A DNA stretch of 32,000 nt from NCBI GenBank assembly GCA_015056175.1, contig SVGT01000013.1, positions 6,984 to 38,983 on the forward strand. Direction: 5' to 3'. The stretch is from Clostridiales bacterium. Lineage in GTDB: Bacteria; Bacillota; Clostridia; Christensenellales; Aristaeellaceae. Shown piece by piece: positions 6,485 to 30,461 of this stretch (position 1 is the stretch's first letter; each line of letters opens with the position of its first letter). Below the pieces are notes generated by a model, which saw nothing but the letters and a program-made list of their open reading frames with translations, was not told where the DNA came from and did no database searches. Both the position numbers and the translations under genes were made by a program.

Positions 6485-8005
6485 TCAGCGGGCGATGATA
6501 TCCACATTGCGCAGAAACACGCCGGGCAGCGAGATGGCCGATACGAAGGTATCCGGCTGGCTGCTGTCGATGAAGAAGCAGACCTGGCTGATATTTTCCA
6601 ATTCCGTCAGGGTATTGACCATGGCGTACACCATGAGCCGCTCCTCCTGCACGGACATGTGGGCGGCGATATCCCGGAAGCGCTGGGTGAGGTTGACAAG
6701 GGCGGTGCCGCCGCTGCAGGCGGTGCCCAGAATATCGCCTGCGCCGGCGCCTGCGGGCATGACGGGGGACAGATGATCGTTTCCGGCGTCGTAATAATCC
6801 GGGCCCTTGATGAGCTGGGTGATGAGGTAATGGGCGTTGGGCGCTTCGTACCAGGGCACGGCGCGGTAGACAGGAGCCAGGGTGTTATCGTCGGAAGCGA
6901 AGTACAGTTTGGCGCGGGACAGAAGGAAAACGCCAAACTGGCTGCGGCGCATCACGCCGTTTGCAAACAGCATGGTTTCGCCGGCGCCCTGATAGGTGCC
7001 CTCGGGGGTGAGGGAGGTGATCTTTTCATCGCCGATGAACATTTCCACGCCTGCGATATTGGGCAGGTACGTGGTCATGGTATAGACCAGAGAGGCCGCC
7101 ATGCAGGAGCGGGTGACGCCCTCGTCCAGCAGCGCCGCGTTCAGATCCTGAGAAAAGCGGAGGGTGAGCACCTTTTCGCCGGAGGTCTCGTTGACGGCGG
7201 GCTCGGTGGCAAGGTACACATGCAGCGGCGGGAAGGCGGGCAGGTCGGTAAGCACCTTGGGGCCTTCGGACAGGGCGTCCAGCAGCGTTCGGGCCATGTG
7301 GGGCAGCGCCGCATTGGAAAAGGCCAGCGTGCGGTTTTCACACAGCACGCCCCGGCCCCCTGCGGCGGGGAAATACAGCGTTACATCCTGCACCAGACGG
7401 CGACTTCCGTCGGCTGCGCTGCGCTGGGAAAGGGCGCGGTCCCACAGGGTGCTCAGATCGTCGGTGGAATTGAGATGCAGCGCACCGGTGGGCGTTTCCG
7501 AGGCTACGTCCAGGCCGGGCTGCACGCCGGCGATAAGGAGATTCACGCTGTCGATGCCGTCGCACCGGCACAGCGTGTTGGCGATGGCCTGGAACACGGT
7601 GTACAATTGCTCGTGGCTCAGCGTCAGCGCCGTGGCGGACAGATTGACCGTGGCAACGCCGCAGGAGATTTCAACCGGGCTTTGCAATTTCAGCGCATCT
7701 GCGCGGGGCAGGGGCTTAGCTTCATCGCCCTCATAGGCAAAGAGCATCTCCAGCAGCGTATCCGCATGCCAGCGGAAGGGGCTCAGCTCCGCTCTCCGGT
7801 TTACGGCCACAAGACGGGTGCCGTCGATGGACGGCAGGTACAATTGCACCGTGGCGGCGCGGGCGTTTTCCATCTGGCCCATGGGCGCCTGGAAGGATAC
7901 CTGCATGGGCGGCAGCGTGGCGCTCTCCTGGGGCAGGGCGTCTTTGGGCGTTGCGCAGCCGGTGAGCATCAGCACAAGGCAAAGGATGGGGATAAGCTTT
8001 TTCAT
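6485..8005 (-). CDS. GerMN-domain lipoprotein (sporulation/germination GerM-like)
   Basis: The lipoprotein signal is MKKLIPILCLVLMLTGC. GerMN-like blocks are present (YRAVPWYEAPNAHYLITQLIKGPD...GGTALVNLTQRF). Confidence 0.75.
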   Translation of the reverse strand: MKKLIPILCLVLMLTGCATPKDALPQESATLPPMQVSFQAPMGQMENARAATVQLYLPSIDGTRLVAVNRRAELSPFRWHADTLLEMLFAYEGDEAKPLPRADALKLQSPVEISCGVATVNLSATALTLSHEQLYTVFQAIANTLCRCDGIDSVNLLIAGVQPGLDVASETPTGALHLNSTDDLSTLWDRALSQRSAADGSRRLVQDVTLYFPAAGGRGVLCENRTLAFSNAALPHMARTLLDALSEGPKVLTDLPAFPPLHVYLATEPAVNETSGEKVLTLRFSQDLNAALLDEGVTRSCMAASLVYTMTTYLPNIAGVEMFIGDEKITSLTPEGTYQGAGETMLFANGVMRRSQFGVFLLSRAKLYFASDDNTLAPVYRAVPWYEAPNAHYLITQLIKGPDYYDAGNDHLSPVMPAGAGAGDILGTACSGGTALVNLTQRFRDIAAHMSVQEERLMVYAMVNTLTELENISQVCFFIDSSQPDTFVSAISLPGVFLRNVDIIAR

Positions 8006-8023: not shown

Positions 8024-8983
8024 TCAGTTGGCGGCCGCAAACAGGGCCGTAAGATGATCGTAGGGGATGCGCCACAGGCCGTTTTCCGAAACCAGATGCA
8101 GCGGGAAGGCGGGGAGCATCACGTCCTGCCCGTCCGCATGGAGCACAAGATCGCAGCTGAACACGGCGCGATGGCCGTCGTGGCTGACCACGCCGGGGCT
8201 GAGTGTAAAGGACAGGAGCGCGGGGGACAGATCAAACTGTTCGTAGGCCTGATTCTGCCCCGGGCGCATATCGCCCTGATCGCCCGTGGCGGCCAGATGC
8301 TGGTACAGTTCCTCATGGCTGCGGCGCATCCATGCGTCCAGCACCTGACAGGCGGTATTGTAGGGGGTGAGCAGCACGCTTTCGTCCCGGGTGATGGGGC
8401 CAAGGGGCGTGTCATCCTCCGTATCGCGGAAAAAGGAGGCGGGCAAACGCAGGGAGGTGACGGCGTCGGCGCTGCGGTCCACCAGCACCTGCACCCGGGT
8501 GCAAAGGCCGCACTCGGTGAGGGTATTGACCAGGGACGCCATGCACAGCTTTCGGCGCAGGATGAATTCGTCATTGCCCGTGCCGCCGCTTTCGCCGGGG
8601 TAGCGGGAAAGCAGCGCATCGTTAAAGGTGAGGAACAGCGTGCCCTCCTGCCGGGCGGCGGACAGCACCTGGGTATCCGGCGGGAAGAGGGAGGTGAGGG
8701 ACACGCTCGCCGCCTCGGGGCCATCAATCAGCGCCTCCACCACGGCTTTTTCCGGCGCATCGCTGCGGGCAAGGTCTATTTTCCGCTCCTCGGCAGCCAG
8801 ATAGGCGCTGTCCTGATAACGGAAATAGAGGCGCACGGTCAGATCATCATCCGCAGGCGTCTCCTGAAAGCTTTCGGCAAGGGAGGGCGCGGGGGAAGGA
8901 TCGTGAGGCAGGGAGGCTTGACTTTTACAGCCTGTGAGCAGCAGGCACAAAAGCAGGGGAAGGACAAGGTATATGCGTTTCAT
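8024..8983 (-). CDS. GerMN-domain lipoprotein
   Basis: Start refined to 8983; the ATG overlaps the upstream TGA by 1 nt. The signal is MKRIYLVLPLLLCLLLTGC. The GerMN block reads RLYFRYQDSAYLAAEERKIDL...AVVEALIDGP...GTLFLTFNDAL. Confidence 0.8.
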   Translation of the reverse strand: MKRIYLVLPLLLCLLLTGCKSQASLPHDPSPAPSLAESFQETPADDDLTVRLYFRYQDSAYLAAEERKIDLARSDAPEKAVVEALIDGPEAASVSLTSLFPPDTQVLSAARQEGTLFLTFNDALLSRYPGESGGTGNDEFILRRKLCMASLVNTLTECGLCTRVQVLVDRSADAVTSLRLPASFFRDTEDDTPLGPITRDESVLLTPYNTACQVLDAWMRRSHEELYQHLAATGDQGDMRPGQNQAYEQFDLSPALLSFTLSPGVVSHDGHRAVFSCDLVLHADGQDVMLPAFPLHLVSENGLWRIPYDHLTALFAAAN

Positions 8984-9753
8984 CAGATCTCCGGTTCCTC
9001 TCCGATGCAATAGGTGCGCAGCTTGTTGGCCGTGCGCTCCAAAGACCCTTTGCTGTCGCCCCAGGGCTTGTCCGCATTACGGTAGTCAAACTTGAGGGTA
9101 AAAAACTCCAGATCGCCCTCCAGCTTGGACAGGCTGCGCTCCATGAGCGCCTGGGTATCGCGGGCAAACTGCACAAGCAGATCGCCGGACAGGTGATCGG
9201 CCGCCAATTCCAACAGATCCGCAGCGTCCGGCACGCAGAGAAGGTCGCTTTGCGCATAGGCCGTGCGGAAGGCAGAATCCGTCTTGTACAGGTGCATCAG
9301 GGTGTAGCGGTAGCGCTCCATGTTTTCCTCGATGGAATCGCAAAGCAGGCAGGTGGAAACAGCTGCGCGGATGTGCTCTGCAGCGTCCCGGAGGGCGTTT
9401 TTGCCGTCCTTGTTGCCGGTCAGCTTCTTGCCAAGGGGCGCTTCGGCGCAGCCTTTGGCCGCCTTCTGGGCGTCGGCAAACAGGGGGGAGAGCTTTTTAT
9501 GGTTTTCCAGCAGATGGGTGTGCATCATCAGCGCATGACCCAGCCGGTTGCGCTGGTTGTACAAAAGCACCTGATGACGGGGGCAGAAGCCCTTCCGGTT
9601 TACCTGGATGCGGGTGTCCGGCTCCATCACCGAGCCGCCCAGGCACCGGTCCACGTCGGTGAGCTCAATCTTGTGCTTCAGGGCGCACAGCGGGCAGTGG
9701 CTTTGCTGCTTGAAGGCGTCCCAGACGGGGATGGTATCGATATGGTAACGCAT
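8983..9753 (-). CDS. Cys-rich hypothetical protein (I recall this as the DUF6062 family; needs an HMM check)
   Basis: The ORF-track start at 9759 is GTG. The ATG at 9753 has AGGAG 5 nt upstream. Reads MRYHIDTIPVWDAFKQQSHCPLCAL...GFCPRHQ...CLLCD. It is the first gene of a tightly packed minus-strand operon. Confidence 0.7.
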   Translation of the reverse strand: MRYHIDTIPVWDAFKQQSHCPLCALKHKIELTDVDRCLGGSVMEPDTRIQVNRKGFCPRHQVLLYNQRNRLGHALMMHTHLLENHKKLSPLFADAQKAAKGCAEAPLGKKLTGNKDGKNALRDAAEHIRAAVSTCLLCDSIEENMERYRYTLMHLYKTDSAFRTAYAQSDLLCVPDAADLLELAADHLSGDLLVQFARDTQALMERSLSKLEGDLEFFTLKFDYRNADKPWGDSKGSLERTANKLRTYCIGEEPEI

Positions 9754-21694: not shown

Positions 21695-22777
21695 ATGGAA
21701 TATTTGGTTTCAGAATATCTCGCATCCGAGACCATAGACCCACTTTTCTTGGTGGGAGATGCTCTTGATGTATTAAAAAATATTCCAGATAACAGCATTG
21801 ATTGTTGTATAACAAGTCCTCCTTATTGGAACAAGAGACAATATGCAAATGGCGGAATAGGTCTGGAAAAGGATTACAATGACTATATTTCCGCACTTGT
21901 TGAAATATTTATGGAAGTACACCGAGTATTAAAACCAACTGGTTCTTTCTGGCTCAATATTGGCGATACTTACCACAAAAAATCATTGCTCAATATTCCT
22001 TGGAGAGTTGCAATTGAATTGACTGACCGAGGGTGGATTCTTCGTAATACTGTCATATGGAACAAAGTAAAAGGCGGTTTAGATAATACTGAAGACCGTT
22101 TAAGAAACATCTATGAACCTGTTTTTCATTTCGTAAAAAAAGCAAAGGGATATTATTACGATATTGACAGTGTAAGAAACACACCGCAAAGCACAAAGGT
22201 TGTAAAAGGTGCAGTGGTCTCTGCGACAGGGGTTACGGGTGTTAGCTACAAAAGAAAAATAGAGTTATCAACTGTGCTGACAGATGAGCAAAAGAAGAAT
22301 GCTTATGCAGCACTTGAGGATATGCTGGAAAAGGTCCGTCTTGGCGAAGTGTCAGATTTTAGAATGATAATCAAAGGAGCTCAGCGAACCACTCATTCTG
22401 ATTCTGAAAAGGTTTCCGGTCGTGCAAAGGAACTGCATGAAAAAGGATTCTATTTCTTAAAGTGCAATCCTAAAGGGAGCAAACCCTCCGATGTTTGGGA
22501 TATACTGCCAGAAGATACTCAAAAGCGAACCACTCATTTTGCACCTTATCCAGAAGATTTGTGCCGAACACCAATTATACTTACCTGTCCCAAAGATGGT
22601 GTTGTACTTGACCCATTTGCAGGAACAGGAACCTCTTGTTTGGTTGCATTAGAATACAACAGAAAATCAATCGGCATAGAAATCGCAGATGAATATGTGG
22701 TAGCTGCCAAAGAAAGATGCCAAAAGAAGGTGGAAGATTATGAGCAAAGTCAAAGAACTATTTGGGATTTATTGTAG
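21695..22777 (+). CDS. type II DNA methyltransferase, beta class (N4-cytosine or N6-adenine; SPPY favours m4C)
   Basis: Motif IV is DCCITSPPYWN near the N-terminus and motif I is VLDPFAGTGTSCLVA near the C-terminus (IV before I, so beta order; Pfam N6_N4_Mtase-like). RBS AGGAGG. The DNA is AT-rich. Confidence 0.9.
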   Translation: MEYLVSEYLASETIDPLFLVGDALDVLKNIPDNSIDCCITSPPYWNKRQYANGGIGLEKDYNDYISALVEIFMEVHRVLKPTGSFWLNIGDTYHKKSLLNIPWRVAIELTDRGWILRNTVIWNKVKGGLDNTEDRLRNIYEPVFHFVKKAKGYYYDIDSVRNTPQSTKVVKGAVVSATGVTGVSYKRKIELSTVLTDEQKKNAYAALEDMLEKVRLGEVSDFRMIIKGAQRTTHSDSEKVSGRAKELHEKGFYFLKCNPKGSKPSDVWDILPEDTQKRTTHFAPYPEDLCRTPIILTCPKDGVVLDPFAGTGTSCLVALEYNRKSIGIEIADEYVVAAKERCQKKVEDYEQSQRTIWDLL

Positions 22778-23576
22778 TGAAAATGCAAATGTGACTGGTG
22801 CTCTCGCCTCTCAAATCTGTCCATACTCAAATAAAAAGTGCTATAAAACGAGAAAAAGTGACCCCGATACTGCAATAGGCACTTGTACTGTTTCGTATCA
22901 AAACAAAGACATTATTATCTGTCCTAATCGTTTAACGGAAAACAGTCAAATATTTATGGATTGCATCCATCTCCTCACATTGCACGAACCAGGCAATGAA
23001 CTCTATGTTCTCCCCGAAATTTCAATTCCTGGTGGCAATGTTGACTATTTCCTTGTTTCTGTGAAAGATGGCAAGGTAAAAGATTTCATTGGAATTGAAC
23101 TGCAGACCATGGATACAACAGGCACAGTTTGGCCTGAAAGACAGAAACTGCTTAATGAATACGGCATTGCCGTTGATGAAGCAGATGTTAGAAACACAAA
23201 GTCTTTCGGAATGAACTGGAAAATGACTGCAAAGACCATTCTGATTCAGATGCACCACAAGACAAAAACATTTGAGAATTTGAACAAGCATCTTGTTCTG
23301 ATTATTCAGAAACCGTTTTTTGAATACATGAACAGAGAGTTTTCGTTCGCTCACATAACCGGTGCCAGAATTGGAGACTCCGCACATTTCCATTCTTATG
23401 ATTTTAAGAATATTGGTAATAGATTAAAACTGACCTTGGACACCAGAGTAAGTACAGATTCTGATGGTATTTTTCAATGTCTCGGTCTTAATGCCGAAGC
23501 AAACGTTGCACTCGAAGATATAATTGCAACTCTTGAGAAAAAACTAAGTGAAGAGTATCTGCTCAGACTGCAATAA
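22740..23576 (+). CDS. type II restriction endonuclease, NotI-family-like
   Basis: It overlaps the methyltransferase gene by 38 nt and has RBS GGTGGA 5 nt upstream. The N-terminal Cys cluster is ICPYSNKKCYK...GTCTV...ICPNRL and the block IGIELQTMDTTG follows. These resemble the CPF..C.K..GVC..CPNR and LEIQTMDFHG blocks I recall from NotI. Confidence 0.7.
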   Translation: MSKVKELFGIYCSENANVTGALASQICPYSNKKCYKTRKSDPDTAIGTCTVSYQNKDIIICPNRLTENSQIFMDCIHLLTLHEPGNELYVLPEISIPGGNVDYFLVSVKDGKVKDFIGIELQTMDTTGTVWPERQKLLNEYGIAVDEADVRNTKSFGMNWKMTAKTILIQMHHKTKTFENLNKHLVLIIQKPFFEYMNREFSFAHITGARIGDSAHFHSYDFKNIGNRLKLTLDTRVSTDSDGIFQCLGLNAEANVALEDIIATLEKKLSEEYLLRLQ

Positions 23577-24912: not shown

Positions 24913-25584
24913 ATGACCAAGGAACAACTGGTACGCTTGTTTGACCACACCTGTCTGCATCCCTACGCCACCCATGCGGATATGGAAAAGCTGTGCGCGG
25001 AGGCCAGGGAGCATCATTTTGCCATGGTGGCCATCAATTCCGTGCAGACCAGGTTCTGCAAGGAGCTGCTCCGCGGCACCGACGTGCACGTGGGCGCTGC
25101 CATCGGCTTCCCTTTGGGGCAGACCACGGTGGAAACCAAGGTGTTTGAAACGGAAGACGCCATCCGTAACGGCGCGGACGAGATCGATTATGTGATCAAC
25201 ATCACCGAACTGAAGATGGGCAATCTCGATTACATCCGGGATGAAATGCAGCGCATCGTGGACGTATGCCGCAAAAACAATGTGATCAGCAAGGTGATCT
25301 TTGAAAACTGCTATCTGACGCAGGCCGAAAAGGAAGCGCTGTGCCGCATCGCGCTGGAGGTGAAGCCGGACTTCATTAAAACCTCCACCGGCTTTGGAAG
25401 TGGCGGCGCCACGCTGGAGGACGTGAAGCTGATGAAGCGCATCGTGGGCGATCAGGTGAAGGTGAAGGCTGCCGGCGGCATCCGCGACCTGGCCGCCTGC
25501 CTTGCCATGGTGGAGGCCGGCGCAGAGCGTATCGGCACCTCGGCGGCGGTCAGGATCACCCAGGAGTTTGAAGCGCGCGCATAA
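24913..25584 (+). CDS. deoC: deoxyribose-phosphate aldolase
   Basis: FDHTCLHP...VAINS...GFPLGQ...[10 protein letters not shown]...FIKTSTGF (Schiff-base Lys)...VKAAGGIR...RIGTSA. RBS GGAGGAAAG. Confidence 0.9.
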
Positions 25585-25593
25585 CGCAAAAAA

Positions 25594-25669
25594 GCACCGA
25601 TCCCTTCCCCTTCACATACATTGGTAGGGGCGAAAGATTCGCCCAAGTGAAGGAAGGACGGTGCTTTTT
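25594..25669 (+). terminator. long compound hairpin plus U-tract: deoC terminator that also buries the SD of the next gene
   Basis: The outer interrupted stem pairs GCACCG.TCC.TTCC..TTCAC (25594-25615) with GTGAAGGAAGGACGGTGC (25647-25664). The inner hairpin is GGGCGAA-aga-TTCGCCC (25628-25644). TTTTT lies at 25665-25669 and the next ATG is at 25672. Confidence 0.65.
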
Positions 25670-25671
25670 GT

Positions 25672-26298
25672 ATGGCTCGAAAATGCCATAACGGCTGCGG
25701 ATATGCATGCGGCGGCTTTGTGCCGTGGAACGGCTGCGGGAATACCTGTGGGAATACGTGTGGGAATACCTGCGGGAATACTTGCGCAAATACCTGTGTC
25801 AACGGCTGCACGGAGGCTTTCCGGTTTGATCAGAATTGTCCCTTTCAGGGCAGCTGTCCCTATCCCATGACCTTTGAGGAAATGCTGCAGCTGCTCCGCA
25901 CGCTGCGCTACGGACGGCTTGCGGTGTGCGCAAACGGCCAGAGCTACGTGACGCCGGTGTGCTTTTCCATGCGCCGGTGCGAGGATACGCCCATCTTTAC
26001 TTTGCGGCTGCGCACGGACGGCTGCATCGCCGGACATCTGGAAAACGGCACCCAGGTCACCTTGCAGTTTGACCGGATGGTGAACGGCGGCGTGTGCACC
26101 GTGCAGGCTATGGGTCAGGCTTATGTGACGGGCAGCACGGGGTGCGTGGCCATTGTGGAGGTACGCACGGACAGCATGATGGGCGAGTGCTACCGCAATC
26201 AGGGCTGCGGAAACAACTGCGGCAACAATTGCGGGAACAACTGCGGGAACAATTGCGGCAATAACTGCGGAAATCCCTGCGAAAACCCCTGCAAGTAA
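25672..26298 (+). CDS. pyridoxamine-5'-phosphate-oxidase-like (split-barrel flavoprotein) domain protein flanked by CGNx Cys-rich repeats
   Basis: The N-terminus reads GCGNTCGNTCGNTCGNTCANTCVNGC and the C-terminus GCGNNCGNNCGNNCGNNCGNNCGNPCENPCK. The core (MTFEEMLQLLRTLRYGRLAVCANGQSYVTPVCF...VTLQFD...) resembles the Pyridox_ox_2/PNPOx-like fold. Confidence 0.7.
   Translation: MARKCHNGCGYACGGFVPWNGCGNTCGNTCGNTCGNTCANTCVNGCTEAFRFDQNCPFQGSCPYPMTFEEMLQLLRTLRYGRLAVCANGQSYVTPVCFSMRRCEDTPIFTLRLRTDGCIAGHLENGTQVTLQFDRMVNGGVCTVQAMGQAYVTGSTGCVAIVEVRTDSMMGECYRNQGCGNNCGNNCGNNCGNNCGNNCGNPCENPCK
25746..25820 (+). repeat. 12-nt periodic coding repeat (CGNT x ~6)
   Basis: The units are tgcgggaatacc / tgtgggaatacg / tgtgggaatacc / tgcgggaatact / tgcgcaaatacc / tgtgtcaacggc. 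The differences among the first four (CGNT) units are all synonymous; the last two degenerate to CANT and CVNG. Confidence 0.85.
26206..26292 (+). repeat. 12-nt periodic coding repeat (CGNN x 5, then CGNP and CENP)
   Basis: The units are tgcggaaacaac / tgcggcaacaat / tgcgggaacaac / tgcgggaacaat / tgcggcaataac / tgcggaaatccc / tgcgaaaacccc. Confidence 0.85.
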
Positions 26299-26304
26299 GG
26301 GAGA

Positions 26305-26327
26305 GGGCGGCGCGGCCGCCCTTTTTT
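26305..26327 (+). terminator. rho-independent terminator
   Basis: GGGCGGC-gcg-GCCGCCC followed by T6. Confidence 0.8.
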
Positions 26328-26336
26328 GATGCAAAC

Positions 26337-26358
26337 AAAAAGACGGCGCAGGGCCGTC
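26337..26358 (-). terminator. rho-independent terminator of the ZIP transporter gene
   Basis: On the minus strand: GACGGC-cctgc-GCCGTC followed by TTTTT. Confidence 0.7.
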
Positions 26359-26364
26359 GGAGCA

Positions 26365-27114
26365 TTAGGAAAGGGCTACGTCCAGCGTCATCATGAGGAG
26401 AAAGCCCAGCATCACGCACAGCGCGGGGAGGGGCGATGCATCCTGCCGCGCTGCGTCCGGGATGCATTCCCGCACGGTGACAAACAGCATGCTGCCTGCG
26501 GCCAGCGCCATGAGGAAGGGAAGGTACCGGGTGGCGTACAGAGCAAAAAAGGCGGTCAGCACGCCAAACAGGGGCTCCACCGCGCCGCTTGCAGCGCCCA
26601 GCAGGAAGGCCCTGGGGCGCTTGACGCCGGATTGCAGCAGGGGCAGCGCCGCCGCCGCGCCCTCGGGGAAATTTTGCAGCGCCACGCCAATCGACAGCGC
26701 AATGGCCGCCGGCAGCGTCTGGGGGTTTTCCGCCGCCAGCGCAAAGGCCAGGCCCACCGCCATGCCCTCGGGGATGTTGTGCAGCGTGATGGAGAGATAG
26801 GTCAGCGCCGCACTTCCATCAATGGGGCTGCGCCGGGTGCGGACGGGGCGCTCCAGCAGAAGCATCAGCAGCGTGCCGGCGACGAGTCCCGCAGCGGAGG
26901 GGATCAGGGGCGACAGGCCCTGCGCCCGCGCCCGATCCATGGCGGGAAGCAGCAAACTGAACAGGGAGGATGCCAGCATGACTCCGGCTGCGAAGCTTAA
27001 GAACAATCGGGCGGCGGAGGATTGCTTCCGGACAAAGAATACCGTGCCCGCGCCCAGCGCGGTTAGCAAAAAGGGAAGGAGCGTGCCTGCGCCCGCCCAC
27101 AAAAAGGCTGTCAT
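26365..27114 (-). CDS. zupT: ZIP family metal (Zn/Fe) transporter, ZupT-like
   Basis: 249 aa and multi-TM. HNIPEGMAVG and LQNFPEGAAAA are the conserved ZIP motifs. RBS GAAAGGA. Confidence 0.85.
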   Translation of the reverse strand: MTAFLWAGAGTLLPFLLTALGAGTVFFVRKQSSAARLFLSFAAGVMLASSLFSLLLPAMDRARAQGLSPLIPSAAGLVAGTLLMLLLERPVRTRRSPIDGSAALTYLSITLHNIPEGMAVGLAFALAAENPQTLPAAIALSIGVALQNFPEGAAAALPLLQSGVKRPRAFLLGAASGAVEPLFGVLTAFFALYATRYLPFLMALAAGSMLFVTVRECIPDAARQDASPLPALCVMLGFLLMMTLDVALS

Positions 27115-27267
27115 TGCGATCTTGTCCTTTCCGACAAAGGGTTGTCGGGATCAGTTTATGCGCAGGCGCAGCGGGGGGTGTCAGTTTGCTTTGCCAGGCG
27201 GAGCCGGGAGATGGTTTGCGGATGTATTGAAGTCGACAGGCATCGATTCTGCTTCCGACAATACACG

Positions 27268-27292
27268 AAAAAGGCTCCTTTGGCAAAGGAGC
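27268..27292 (-). terminator. rho-independent terminator (minus strand) upstream of the zupT leader
   Basis: On the minus strand: GCTCCTTT-gcc-AAAGGAGC then C-TTTTT. Confidence 0.65.
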
Positions 27293-27614
27293 TGTCACGA
27301 AGTGACTGAGGATTGTTCTAAGCTGCATATGATGTTTGCTGCACAGGACAATCCCCACCGCTGCGCGGAGCCCCTTTGCCTAAGGGGCCTTTTGGATGGG
27401 CGTGTTTGGTGGGAGAGCGATAGGAGCAGGCTTATCAAGTTACTGGAAGGTGTAATGGAGTCGATGAGTCGCTTCCTTTGCCTAAGGGGGATGGAAGGGT
27501 GTGTTTGGTGGGTTGGCGAGGGGAGTTGAATGTTCAGTTGCGTTAGAAGCACATTGCTTCGATGGGCTGGTATTCCTTTAGCATACGCAATCTGCCCTTT
27601 GACTGCAACCGGGC

Positions 27615-27998
27615 TTAATCGTCATACGTTGTATCAACGCCGGACAGACGAAGCCGAACTTCCTCATCAATCATGGCGCACACACTTTCAAAGTGCAGAC
27701 GGACATCCTGATTGTCAAAGCGAAGCACGCGCAGTCCCAGACTGTTCAGATATTTGGTGCGTTCAAAATCATGCTGATTGACGTGCTCAGAATAATGCTG
27801 AGACCCGTCCAGTTCGACGATCAACCGGGCACGGGCGCAGTAGAAATCAGCAATATAGGAACCGATGATGCGCTGCCGATTAAAACGCACAGGATATGTA
27901 CGCAGATAATCGTACCAAAGGTGATTTTCCTCTTTGGTGGCATGCTTACGCATATGAGCAGCAAAGCCGCTTAAGCTTTTTTCACGGGGAAGCGGCAT
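27615..27998 (-). CDS. DUF559 (Vsr-like endonuclease fold) domain protein
   Basis: LRKHATKEENHLWYDYLRTYPVRFNRQRIIGSYIADFYCARARLIVELDGSQH...LRFDN is the classic DUF559 pattern. GC is visibly lower than in the neighbours. Confidence 0.8.
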   Translation of the reverse strand: MPLPREKSLSGFAAHMRKHATKEENHLWYDYLRTYPVRFNRQRIIGSYIADFYCARARLIVELDGSQHYSEHVNQHDFERTKYLNSLGLRVLRFDNQDVRLHFESVCAMIDEEVRLRLSGVDTTYDD

Positions 27999-28000
27999 AC

Positions 28001-28561
28001 TTAAGGCTTACTGAACAGGAAGAAGGGGCGTTCGCGGCAGTCGTCGCGGATGACCGTCCAGTGGGCATAGGCGGTGGTGCCGTCCATGCGCACCTTTTCC
28101 CTGCGGCCGGGCTTGTCAAAGCGGCCGGGGCGGTACATGGGGTCCAGCACGGAGATGATATCGTCCTCAATGCCGGTGATCAGCACATAATGCCCGCTGT
28201 CGGAGAACACGCCGACGTAATCCTCCCGGTCGCCGTAGGTATTGGCGACCACGAAGCCCTTTTTGTCGCGCAGGAACTGCATGGCTTCCTCGGCGTCCTC
28301 GGTATCGGTGACGTTCAGGTGGAAGTGCTCGGCCAGACCCTTGGCGTAGATATAGAAATTGGTGCCGAAGGTCTCGCGGGCGCCGCAGCTCTTGGCCAGC
28401 TTGGCAGCCTCTTCCGGCGGGAAGGGGATATCCAGCATGCGCTCGATCATCATGGCGGCGGAGCAGGGGCCGCAGCCGTTGTTGGCCAGGTTGCCGTGGG
28501 GGCTGACGGGGGAAACATAGGGGACGTGCTCATAATCCAATTGACAGTAGAAATTTTCCAT
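28001..28561 (-). CDS. papain-like cysteine peptidase, C39-like, no signal peptide
   Basis: Start refined to 28561 (MENFYCQLDY). The candidate triad is NNGCGPCSAAMM (Cys), SGHYVLITG (His) and VLDP (Asp). It starts 5 nt after the M20 gene and ends 2 nt before DUF559. Confidence 0.65.
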   Translation of the reverse strand: MENFYCQLDYEHVPYVSPVSPHGNLANNGCGPCSAAMMIERMLDIPFPPEEAAKLAKSCGARETFGTNFYIYAKGLAEHFHLNVTDTEDAEEAMQFLRDKKGFVVANTYGDREDYVGVFSDSGHYVLITGIEDDIISVLDPMYRPGRFDKPGRREKVRMDGTTAYAHWTVIRDDCRERPFFLFSKP

Positions 28562-28565
28562 ACTC

Positions 28566-29750
28566 TCACTCCCAGTGCGCTTTGGTTTTGTGCATGTGAT
28601 CCAGCACGAACTGTACAAACATTTCGGCGCCGTAGTGCAGACCGCTTTCGTCGATCTGCCACAGCGGGGAATGGGCGGGGTATTTGCAGCCCGTTTCTTC
28701 GTTGCGCAGGCCCAGGCCGAACAGCAGGCCCGGCTTGTGCTTTTCATAATAGGCAAAGTCCTCGCCGCCGGGAGAGGGCTCCAGCACGGCGACCTTGTCC
28801 GTCACCTTGGCGGCGGATTCAAGGAACATATCGTACATCTTGCTGTCGTTATAGGCGGGGGGCAGGGGATCCTGGGCGAAGGTCACTTCGCCCGTGCCGC
28901 CCATGTCGTCACAGACACTTTTCACCAGACGGCGGATGCGCTCCTGCATTTGATCGCGGGTGGATTCCTTGAGGCAGCGCATGGAGCCGCGCATGTGGCA
29001 AAAATCCGGCACCTGGGCGATGGTCTTGCCGCTTTCCATCACGCCCACGCCCAGCACGCAGGTATCAAAGGGGTCTACCTCCCGGCTGATGAGGAACTGC
29101 AGCCCGTCGTAGATCCTGACGCCCATGGCCAGGGCGTCCTTGCCCAGATGGGGCGCTGCCACATGGGCGGCCTCGCCGTGGGTCGTGATCTCAAAGGCGC
29201 AGGAGGTGGCGTTGGTGATGCCGCTGCAGGAATTGATGACGCCGGTCTTTTCCACGCAGTTGACGTGGCACATGATGATGCAGTCGATATCGTCCATCAC
29301 GCCGTGCTTGCACATCACCTGTGCGCCGGAGGGCTTGTTTTCCTCGCAGGGCTGGAACACCAGCCGCACGCGGCAGGCCAGCTTGTCCTCGATTTCCTTC
29401 AGCGCCTTGGCGGCGCCCAGCAGCATGGCGGTGTGGGCGTCGTGACCGCAGGCGTGCATCTGGCCGTCGATCTTCGAGCGGAAGGGCAGGCCGTTTTCCG
29501 CCTCCTGGATGGGCAGCGCGTCCATATCCGCACGGATGCCGATGGTGAAAGCGGCGTCCTGCCTGCCCAGGGTGGCGACCACGGTGTTGCGGCCGTATTT
29601 TTCAAAATCATAGGAAATGCCCAGCTTGTCCATCTCGCGGCGGACAAGGGCGCTGGTTTTGTCCAGATCCCAGCCGAGCTCCGGGTACATGTGCAGCTCC
29701 CGGCGGAGGGCAACAATATAGTCCTGATCGACCTTGAAAGGAATGTGCAT
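28566..29750 (-). CDS. M20/M20D family amidohydrolase (N-acyl-amino-acid/hippurate-hydrolase type)
   Basis: Start refined to 29750 (AGGAGG, 5 nt, ATG). LRRELHMYPELGW...IGIRADMDALPI...HACGHDAHTAMLLGAA...VFQPCEE...HSPLW are the typical M20D blocks. Confidence 0.9.
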   Translation of the reverse strand: MHIPFKVDQDYIVALRRELHMYPELGWDLDKTSALVRREMDKLGISYDFEKYGRNTVVATLGRQDAAFTIGIRADMDALPIQEAENGLPFRSKIDGQMHACGHDAHTAMLLGAAKALKEIEDKLACRVRLVFQPCEENKPSGAQVMCKHGVMDDIDCIIMCHVNCVEKTGVINSCSGITNATSCAFEITTHGEAAHVAAPHLGKDALAMGVRIYDGLQFLISREVDPFDTCVLGVGVMESGKTIAQVPDFCHMRGSMRCLKESTRDQMQERIRRLVKSVCDDMGGTGEVTFAQDPLPPAYNDSKMYDMFLESAAKVTDKVAVLEPSPGGEDFAYYEKHKPGLLFGLGLRNEETGCKYPAHSPLWQIDESGLHYGAEMFVQFVLDHMHKTKAHWE

Positions 29751-29784
29751 AAATGCCTCCTGATATGGTGTTCTTTGTGTGTAT

Positions 29785-29813
29785 ATGATACACCGAAACG
29801 GCAAATTGCGCAA
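29785..29813 (-). promoter_or_regulatory. candidate promoter of the M20 operon, between the gene and repeat copy B
   Basis: On the minus strand: TTGCGC (29813-29808), 17-nt spacer, TATCAT (29790-29785). Confidence 0.45.
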
Positions 29814-29820
29814 GCCTTGC

Positions 29821-30461
29821 GGGGGCGTTGCCCCCTGCACCCCTACCAGGAGGCTGAGCCTCCTGGACCTGCAGTGTTGGACGGACAGGTCTGATCGATT
29901 GAGATGTTTCCCAATGGGACAATACGGGGAAACGGAATGAAAAATGAAGGAATGAAGCGTGCCATGCGGCACATGAAGCACGTTCCTTTAGAACGCGTTG
30001 CGGCTTTACAGCCGCTGTAGGGCGGGGGCTTGCTCCCGCCACTTTGTTTGGGAAAAGCCAATGGGTTGAGTGGGACATGTTTGAGCGATCCGCAGTTTTT
30101 TCCGTTTACGGAAAAAACGGGAACTTCATCACCAAGAGCAGGAGCAAATGAATTTGCTTCCTGCCTTGGTTGATGAAGGAGGCCAGACGCGCAAAGCGCG
30201 CCCTGGCCCGGCGGATCGCCGTATCGATGAGTAGGGTCTCTTTCCGGCAACAGTGTTTCACGGGGAAAATGCATGTGGAACGGTGTACCTGTGTCCCGAA
30301 TGGCGGGTGCAGGGGGACGGAGCCGAAGCGCCGCCGGTGGCGGATACAGCGAGGCGGAGGAGTCAACCGAAACGAGCGATCGACCGGCAGGGAGAGCGCG
30401 ACGATTGAGGTTGCGGAAATCAGTACCCTGCCTGGGGGTAGTGGGGGCAAGGAGCCCCCAC
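29821..30461. repeat. copy B of the ORF-free, hairpin-dense element of about 650 nt
   Basis: It has the same block order and orientation as 17313-17971, with identical 43-mer 29845-29887, 19-mer 30015-30033, 60-nt block 30071-30130 and right-end block 30422-30461. It carries an extra segment of about 90 nt (29917-30014). Confidence 0.75.

Follow-up and report, generated by a model that had tools for sequence, protein, structure and literature searches.

A Cys-rich split-barrel protein with tetrapeptide-repeat tails in uncultured gut Clostridia, a candidate spore-envelope component

We analyzed a stretch of 32,000 nucleotides (nt; here called the window) from contig SVGT01000013.1 of a Clostridiales assembly (GCA_015056175.1), in which a gene at positions 25672 to 26298 of the plus strand (stop codon, 26296 to 26298) encodes a protein of 208 amino acids (aa) with Cys-rich tetrapeptide repeats on both sides of a small folded domain. 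An original prediction, made without database searches, had described a PNPOx-like flavoprotein core preceded and followed by CGNx repeats, with about 27 Cys residues; translation of the open reading frame (ORF) gives exactly 27 (13%), 20 of them in the tails, and bears out the order of the units. A conserved N-terminal segment, MARKCHNGCGYACGGFVPWNG (25672 to 25734), is followed by a first array of 12-nt units (CGNT four times, then CANT and CVNG; residues 22 to 45; 25735 to 25806), by a linker conserved in the family alignment as AFxFxxxCxFxxxCxYP (25807 to 25866), by the PNPOx-like split beta-barrel core with seven mostly conserved Cys (residues 66 to 175; 25867 to 26196; LAVCANGQSYVTPVCFSMR is an example of its peptide), and by a second array (CGNN five times, then CGNP and CENP; residues 179 to 206; 26206 to 26289), all on the plus strand. 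Tandem Repeats Finder placed 12-nt arrays at 25734 to 25796 and 26205 to 26273. No signal peptide was found in the 208-aa protein, and its tails contain neither Lys nor Arg. An intrinsic terminator read from the sequence (GGGCGGC..GCCGCCC plus T6; 26306 to 26327, plus strand) closes the gene, and a separate one (26332 to 26358, minus strand) closes the convergent gene for a ZIP (ZupT-like) Zn/Fe permease (26365 to 27114, minus strand), which was identified by a Pfam Zip match (2e-23), a weak NCBIfam ZupT match, and synteny. This convergence had been predicted correctly, but the intervening gap is 66 nt, not 67.

The plus-strand frame is the coding frame, since GC content at third codon positions (GC3) is 0.74, the frame is kept in the family alignment, and the core differs from that of the closest strain (locus L090) by 10 synonymous and 3 nonsynonymous codons (13/127 compared codons). 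Contigs from independent faecal metagenomes are identical to the window across the gene, which is therefore not an assembly artefact. Assemblies tend to break within the C-terminal array; contigs of run X11, which looks like a library of a single organism ~97 to 98% identical to the window, end at 26221. Among the perfect repeat units, all five variable DNA positions are third-codon and synonymous (two in the N-terminal array, with variants TGC/TGT and ACC/ACG/ACT, and three in the C-terminal array, with variants GGA/GGC/GGG and AAC/AAT), as the original prediction had stated; the probability that all five would be third-codon positions by chance is ~0.0017. A start at an internal Met, an objection raised with that prediction, was rejected because the MAR..FVPWNG motif and the open frame are conserved. 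Three seemingly short homologs are gene-calling or contig-end truncations, the frame being open to a MARKCHNG start in L090 and to the contig end in L091.

In an AlphaFold2 model built from the family alignment, residues 62 to 175 form a confident domain (predicted local distance difference test score, 72 to 89) of seven strands and one helix, and both tails are disordered. Foldseek comparison with the PDB ranked 3cp3, 6eci, 3fkh, and 2hq9 highest (E ~1e-7; target template modeling score, 0.7 to 0.85), and the top 50 matches were all PNPOx-like split barrels that bind FMN, FAD, F420, or haem. By sequence, the Pfam family PF12900 (Pyridox_ox_2) scored 16.9 bits against a cut-off of 27, over residues 69 to 109 only, the precomputed match of the relative P0004 to the same family is weak, and NCBIfam gave no significant match for the 208-aa protein. 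A profile search returned, as the next tier after the close family, proteins of 116 to 134 aa (E, 1e-11 to 1e-5) that have no tails and exceed the PF12900 cut-off. Aligning the family alignment (A2) with one of Pyridox_ox_2 proteins (A5) in hhalign gave 99.7% over 107 columns (E, 1.4e-25). A sequence-profile search of the PDB yielded marginal matches, of which 2hq9 and 3cp3 (E, 0.3 to 1) were later confirmed by Foldseek; a match to the ClpA N-domain (E, 0.03) in the same search was judged spurious. The core is a PNPOx-like split barrel, its fold and superfamily established, in agreement with the original prediction except that it spans about 110 to 115 aa (residues 62 to 175) instead of about 130. 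Judged by these profiles, the 208-aa protein is a divergent relative of Pyridox_ox_2 within the PNPOx-like/FMN-binding split-barrel superfamily, which includes the Nim proteins; fold and profile-profile homology are common to both. Compared with PF12900 members, it adds Cys-rich tails at both ends and seven conserved core Cys and is without a near-invariant Ser and Lys. No PF12900 member with Cys-rich tails at both ends has been described.

The flavoprotein part of the original description fared less well than the barrel fold, and flavin binding remains predicted. At the positions of S69 and K75, which are nearly invariant among the tail-less relatives, the target group (the 208-aa protein and its close relatives) has Leu and has Ile, Leu, or Met, respectively, and new invariant Arg residues (R112 and R114) stand beside these positions. 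A Nim/PNPOx-type redox enzyme that uses flavin or haem, and whose Cys tails relay electrons or thiols, ligate Fe-S clusters, or serve as a sacrificial antioxidant, would agree with the cofactors bound by the best fold matches (FAD, FMN, F420, and haem), with the homology to Pyridox_ox_2, and with the seven conserved core Cys and many invariant Arg residues, which could bind a cofactor phosphate. However, the Pfam score falls under the cut-off, the near-invariant Ser and Lys have been replaced by hydrophobic residues, and the tails range from 7 to 93 residues and differ by whole units from strain to strain, so that a fixed Fe-S ligand geometry does not fit. We consider such an enzyme quite improbable.

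When 1.84 billion representative proteins were searched exhaustively with a profile, only four close representative clusters were returned, and only seven family clusters were present among 5.8 billion proteins, all metagenomic and none named. Scanning with the family alignment found no relative in the GTDB species-representative genomes, and JGI metagenome contigs yielded none either. The family is tiny, unnamed, and known only from gut metagenomes, and the host is a gut bacterium of the Clostridia that has not been cultured. With nothing significant in Pfam or NCBIfam and all relatives unnamed, the original statement that no described family has this architecture stands. All eight full-length relatives begin with MAR(N/K)R...F(V/I)PW.G and are Cys-rich at both ends, with N-terminal tails of 48 to 93 aa, C-terminal tails of 7 to 62 aa, and 16 to 28 Cys in total. 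The tails consist of 19 to 24% Cys with Gly, Asn, Ser, Asp, and Thr spacers, contain aromatic residues and, in homologs, CxC motifs (e.g., CGCRC and CNCGNTC), and are not alignable between genera; identity in the barrel core is 62 to 83% across the family.

Unit number varies among close strains. L090 has six CGNx units at its N terminus and no CGNN array, its tail being NQGCTGCANNGNTCEDPCR, and runs X11 and X21 have one 12-nt unit fewer than the window (a 12-nt deletion at 25747). With 3, 4, or 6 CGNx units in the N-terminal array of strains that otherwise show only scattered base differences, slippage evidently occurs, always in frame. The exact tetrapeptide arrays are lineage-specific and unstable, and selection keeps Cys-dense, Gly/Asn-rich tails and not a particular repeat. 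The original argument that the peptide repeat is under selection is supported by the synonymous unit differences and by the Cys-rich tails in 8/8 full-length relatives, and the arrays are real; its denial of slippage needs qualification, given the shifting unit number and the missing CGNN array. Likewise, the exact C-terminal repeats are absent from orthologs, which the prediction had listed as a point that would count against it, but Cys-rich C-terminal tails are present.

In a sister group of Pyridox_ox_2-like proteins of 207 to 290 aa (P0012, P0013, P0018-P0021, P0023, P0027, P0028, and P0082-P0084; loci L004, L087, and L088), a long, inserted Cys-rich stretch of low complexity (e.g., GSCNNSCNCDNGCSCSLNGSCGNHCNGGCNGSC) separates the last two barrel strands, and a C-x3-C-x3-C motif is found at the C terminus. 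Since thiol-rich sequence forms terminal tails in one group and a barrel-hairpin insert in the other, the split-barrel scaffold has been decorated in two ways, and such recurrence at two positions of one small barrel suggests selection for thiol display. These observations bear on whether the tails are functionless low-complexity slippage expansions on a small housekeeping barrel protein. The 3, 4, or 6 units of close strains, the lack of the CGNN array in the closest relative, and tails that cannot be aligned between genera would be expected from such expansions. Nevertheless, all eight full-length relatives keep Cys-rich tails at both ends with 16 to 28 Cys, the sister group independently bears its Cys-rich insert, units differ by synonymous changes only, and the periodicity of Cys persists through changes in the spacer residues, which makes mere expansion very unlikely.

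A search with the tails only gave one marginal match, P0085, an 89-aa protein found on 14 contigs (the longest, 181 kb). In P0085, nine CGxx units (CGSN, CGMS, CGNS, …) come after a leader of the double-glycine type (…LINIRGG), and the protein resembles a precursor of ribosomally synthesized and posttranslationally modified peptides (RiPPs); its likeness to the 208-aa protein is one of analogy, not homology. The CxxxC repeats of the latter could in principle be substrates of a radical-SAM/RiPP-type maturase, posttranslationally cross-linked and perhaps previously cleaved by a nearby C39-like peptidase. P0085, a syntenic Peptidase_C39_2 gene two genes away, and a weak match to TIGR04117 (Cys-Xaa-Xaa-Xaa repeat radical SAM target), in which Cys likewise occupies every fourth residue, all point in this direction. 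Yet the match to TIGR04117 reaches 6.5 bits (E, 8.4), far under the cut-off of 50, no radical-SAM/SPASM gene occurs in the 32-kb window or among the flanking genes in L001 to L006, the C39_2 gene belongs to the ZIP-side operon, and a conserved folded core of 110 aa is unlike a RiPP precursor. We regard this explanation as extremely unlikely.

The association with a ZIP gene noted in the original prediction extends well beyond the window. In every locus that reaches far enough downstream (window, L001, L002, L003, and L006), the Cys-rich gene adjoins a ZIP gene or is separated from it by one or two inserted genes, and the upstream neighbor varies (DeoC, acetyltransferase, or DUF2284). The ZIP proteins are only 55 to 60% identical to that of the window, compared with 62 to 83% for the barrel core, so the linkage spans considerable divergence. 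The inserted genes are AT-rich (L002, 1837 to 2265; L003, 2575 to 2994 and 3354 to 3767; all on the minus strand) and encode proteins of 137 to 142 aa that start with MKS(A/V)YVKP.M and have no Pfam match. All of them are preceded by a conserved leader and by a sigma-70 promoter close to consensus (TTGACA-N17-TATAAT), and they resemble a family of paralogs that is mobile or was acquired recently.

The Cys-rich gene and the ZIP gene also have a promoter-like motif in common. Upstream of the former, GCACC (with the -35 "AC"), N17, and CATACATT as -10 (25594 to 25622, plus strand) resemble the mother-cell type of promoter recognized by sigmaK or sigmaE, judged by the Clostridioides difficile consensus (PMC3789822). 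In that species, as in Bacillus subtilis, sigmaK promoters combine a -35 "AC" with a -10 "CATA," and sigmaE promoters have a -35 "ATA"; mother-cell-controlled genes include feoAB, CD3483 (for a putative Zn/Fe permease), and the sigmaK-dependent CD1067, whose product is listed there simply as conserved hypothetical (PMC3789822). An alignment of ortholog upstream regions shows invariant blocks in the order GCACC, 16 to 17 variable bases, CATAnnnTG, a small GC hairpin located where the 5' end of the transcript is predicted (GGGCGAA-AGA-TTCGCCC; 25628 to 25644, plus strand; present in all orthologous leaders with changed sequence), and an extended Shine-Dalgarno (SD) region, AGGAAGGACGGTG (25651 to 25663, plus strand), 8 nt from the ATG. 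AC-N16/17-CATAnnnT(G) occurs 40 to 76 nt before the ATG in 8/8 target-group loci with sufficient upstream sequence (window, L090, L006, L005, L003, L002, L001, and L089). In relaxed form (AC-N16/17-CATAnnnT), which is also the form found in L089, it precedes, within the same range of distances, the insertion-group paralogs in L004 and L088, the sister-group sequence being AC-N17-CATAgtaTGG, and a tail-less small relative in L092 (CATATACTA). ZIP genes carry the motif upstream in five loci: in the window it reads CACC-N16-CATAAACT (27153 to 27180, minus strand), and it is kept in L006, L003, L002, and L001.

Such sequences are rare in the window. CACC-N15-17-CATAnnnT occurs three times against 0.45 expected, and two of the three lie directly upstream of the Cys-rich gene (25595 to 25622, plus strand) and the ZIP gene, an arrangement repeated in related loci; the relaxed pattern matches only five times on both strands of the 32 kb. 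A match upstream of the window deoC, which served as a negative control, is not conserved in L005 or L006 and was attributed to chance. We found no sigma-70-like promoter upstream of the Cys-rich gene, no sigmaE-type pattern (-35 ATA) upstream of any window gene, and no Zur- or Fur-like palindrome in the upstream regions of the Cys-rich or ZIP gene. Since an Rfam search of 25400 to 26500 gave chance-level matches only, the leader is not a known riboswitch.

Linkage and a common motif raise the possibility of a cytoplasmic, metallothionein-like metal buffer or chaperone that works with ZIP, its tails sequestering Zn, Cu, or Fe imported by ZIP, its barrel serving as a carrier or delivery domain, and both genes using a promoter that is not specific to sporulation, which would make the protein a vegetative partner of ZIP. 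Metallothioneins and metallochaperone tails (SmtA/BmtA, fungal Cu-MT, and the SlyD/HypB type) contain Cys- or Cys/His-rich metal-binding segments, and the 208-aa protein is likewise disordered in its tails, dense in Cys (19 to 24%) with small polar spacers, and linked genomically to a metal importer; homolog tails include CxC motifs, the linkage persists although ZIPs are only 55 to 60% identical and the upstream neighbor changes, and a single motif type precedes both genes. In contrast to metallothioneins, however, it has 208 aa with a folded domain of 110 aa, CxxxC spacing in the window rather than CxC or CxxC, aromatic residues in the tails, and no match to a metallothionein family in Pfam at E of ≤10; metal binding by it is putative. 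Moreover, the two genes are convergent and not cotranscribed, neither upstream region shows a Zur- or Fur-like palindrome, and the paralogs are not ZIP-linked. A vegetative metal buffer therefore seems rather unlikely to us, but metal binding by the tails is compatible with, and not exclusive of, a location in the spore.

In the target group, the motif lies within a larger structure. A long imperfect hairpin (25588 to 25669, plus strand; ΔG, -37.5 to -39.4 kcal/mol; z, -5 to -6) extends from the -35 region to the SD and is followed by a U-run, in the manner of a terminator or insulator; its 5' arm and loop hold the -35 and -10 boxes, and its 3' arm holds the SD. The hairpin recurs in L090, L006, L005, L003, L001, and L002, where a few bases at most separate its start from the stop codon of the upstream gene, whichever gene that is. 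Across target-group loci ΔG ranges from -26 to -43 kcal/mol, with z of -4.7 to -7.2 in six loci and -1.7 in L002. From a MAFFT alignment of the leaders, RNAalifold retrieved the outer stem only, and realignment to a covariance model was needed. Built from the four closest sequences, this model recovered the hairpin in L003, L001, and L002 (seven loci in total). Canonical pairs make up 82% of the cells in the plus-strand alignment, and compensatory changes occur in 8/29 pairs, counts that lean towards structure because the alignment was fitted to the model; the inner helix covaries between genera (TTCAC/GTGAA versus CAGGC/GCCTG). ZIP and paralog leaders are without the long hairpin yet carry the motif, which is thus not a mere by-product of the structure. 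We infer that the hairpin would terminate and translationally silence read-through from upstream, whereas transcripts initiated internally, without the 5' arm, would have a free SD.

Taken together, we tentatively read the Cys-rich protein as a sporulation-expressed, thiol-rich component of the spore envelope (coat or exosporium) that cross-links, binds metal, or does both, an interpretation we find plausible while stopping short of calling it probable. Of the two functional ideas in the original prediction, metal binding and spore coat, the promoter evidence favors the latter: the motif is found at target, ZIP, and paralog loci, it is rare in the window, and no sigma-70-like promoter was seen. 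Further support comes from the Cys content of 13%, the absence of a signal peptide, tails that are present in every relative although disordered in the AlphaFold2 model, a core more conserved than ZIP, and two adjacent GerM ("Germane") genes (6485 to 8005 and 8024 to 9010, both on the minus strand). The GerM pair, which follows a DUF6062 gene, is the only hint of sporulation or germination in the window, and no sigmaE/K-like motif was found upstream of these genes with their called starts.

Disulfide cross-linked spore layers are built by mutually unrelated Cys-rich proteins such as CsxA, ExsY, CotY, and CdeC; CD1067 is, we take it, the Cys-rich exosporium gene cdeC. Like CsxA of Clostridium sporogenes, ExsY/CotY of Bacillus, and CdeC/CdeM of C. 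difficile, the 208-aa protein is Cys-rich and without a signal peptide and has a predicted promoter of the mother-cell type. Unlike it, none of these has a PNPOx-like core or tetrapeptide Cys arrays; the protein would be analogous and not homologous to them. BclA-type exosporium proteins show repeat-length polymorphism in collagen-like GXX triplets. In-frame variation in the number of short units between close strains resembles that of such repeat-bearing spore-surface proteins, but the units here are CGNx rather than GXX, and the proteins are not homologous.

Several points weigh against a spore-envelope role. The sigma factor is assigned from a short consensus, and the -10 ends in TG rather than the TA or AT of model organisms. 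Covariation in the hairpin implies that the stretch from -35 to -10 is under selection at the RNA level too, which could explain part of its conservation in the target group, though not the motifs of ZIP and paralog loci. Neither Pfam nor NCBIfam gave a match to any coat or exosporium family, and the protein has no similarity to a known coat protein. The 32-kb window contains no spo, sig, or cot gene, and sporulation capacity of the host is only presumed; its lineage has no genome among the GTDB species representatives, in which the closest YchF proteins, from metagenome-assembled genomes of Oscillospiraceae and Clostridia, reach 79% identity at most. The paralogs in L004 and L088 are not adjacent to ZIP. 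Lastly, transcription is represented by a single contig of low depth from a gut metatranscriptome (~25634 to 25817), which starts just downstream of the predicted -10, has no upstream extension, and is weakly consistent with initiation at the embedded promoter.

Under a spore-envelope role, RNA polymerase with a mother-cell sigma factor (sigmaK-like; -35 "AC," -10 "CATAnnnT") would initiate inside the terminator-like hairpin, at ~25628 to 25631, and because of this the sporulation transcript would be without the 5' arm (25588 to 25612), which would conceal the ribosome-binding site in longer RNA. The compact, conserved barrel would probably serve as the assembly or enzymatic unit, while the two disordered Cys-Gly-Asn tails would cross-link through disulfides and/or chelate metal, and the adjacent ZIP, coexpressed from the same type of promoter, would bring Zn or Fe into the mother cell. 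Tail length would drift by in-frame gain and loss of 12-nt units.

Between ZIP and a C39_2-like gene, the window has a DUF559 endonuclease-domain gene (27615 to 27998, minus strand), which is a lineage-specific insertion, since the C39_2-like and ZIP genes are directly adjacent in L001 and L002. The noncoding stretch of 500 nt between DUF559 and ZIP (27115 to 27614) contains terminator-like hairpins on both strands. The C39_2-like ORF (28001 to 28756, minus strand; 251 aa) overlaps an M20 peptidase gene (28566 to 29981, minus strand) by ~190 nt; its true start is probably near 28560 (MENFYCQLDY…), since orthologs have 185 to 186 aa. On the other side of the Cys-rich gene, an N6/N4 DNA methylase and a NotI-like restriction endonuclease (21695 to 23576, plus strand) have a GC3 of 0.31 to 0.35 against ~0.8 in neighboring genes and are absent from the syntenic locus L006; they probably form a horizontally acquired restriction-modification island.

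The 208-aa protein belongs, as a divergent member, to a known fold family; neither its architecture nor its predicted regulatory setting has been described before. It could represent a hitherto undescribed class of proteins in the spore envelopes of uncultured gut Clostridia, one in which a PNPOx-like barrel has been recruited and combined with hypervariable, metallothionein-like Cys-repeat modules (at the termini or, in the sister group, in a barrel hairpin) and is coexpressed with a dedicated ZIP from mother-cell promoters, the hairpin-embedded promoter making only the sporulation transcript translatable; in this full form the proposal is speculative, and we regard it as doubtful. Almost nothing is known of the spore envelopes of the dominant gut Clostridia, most of which are uncultured; these envelopes govern host-to-host transmission, survival in oxygen, and germination. 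If the spore-envelope interpretation is correct, a thiol-rich component with strain-variable repeats would provide a marker of sporulation in metagenomes and metatranscriptomes, would offer a candidate factor behind spore resistance or metal loading, and would exemplify the recruitment of an enzyme fold for structure. The layout of a promoter inside a terminator, if true, would be a compact means of insulating a developmental gene from vegetative read-through.

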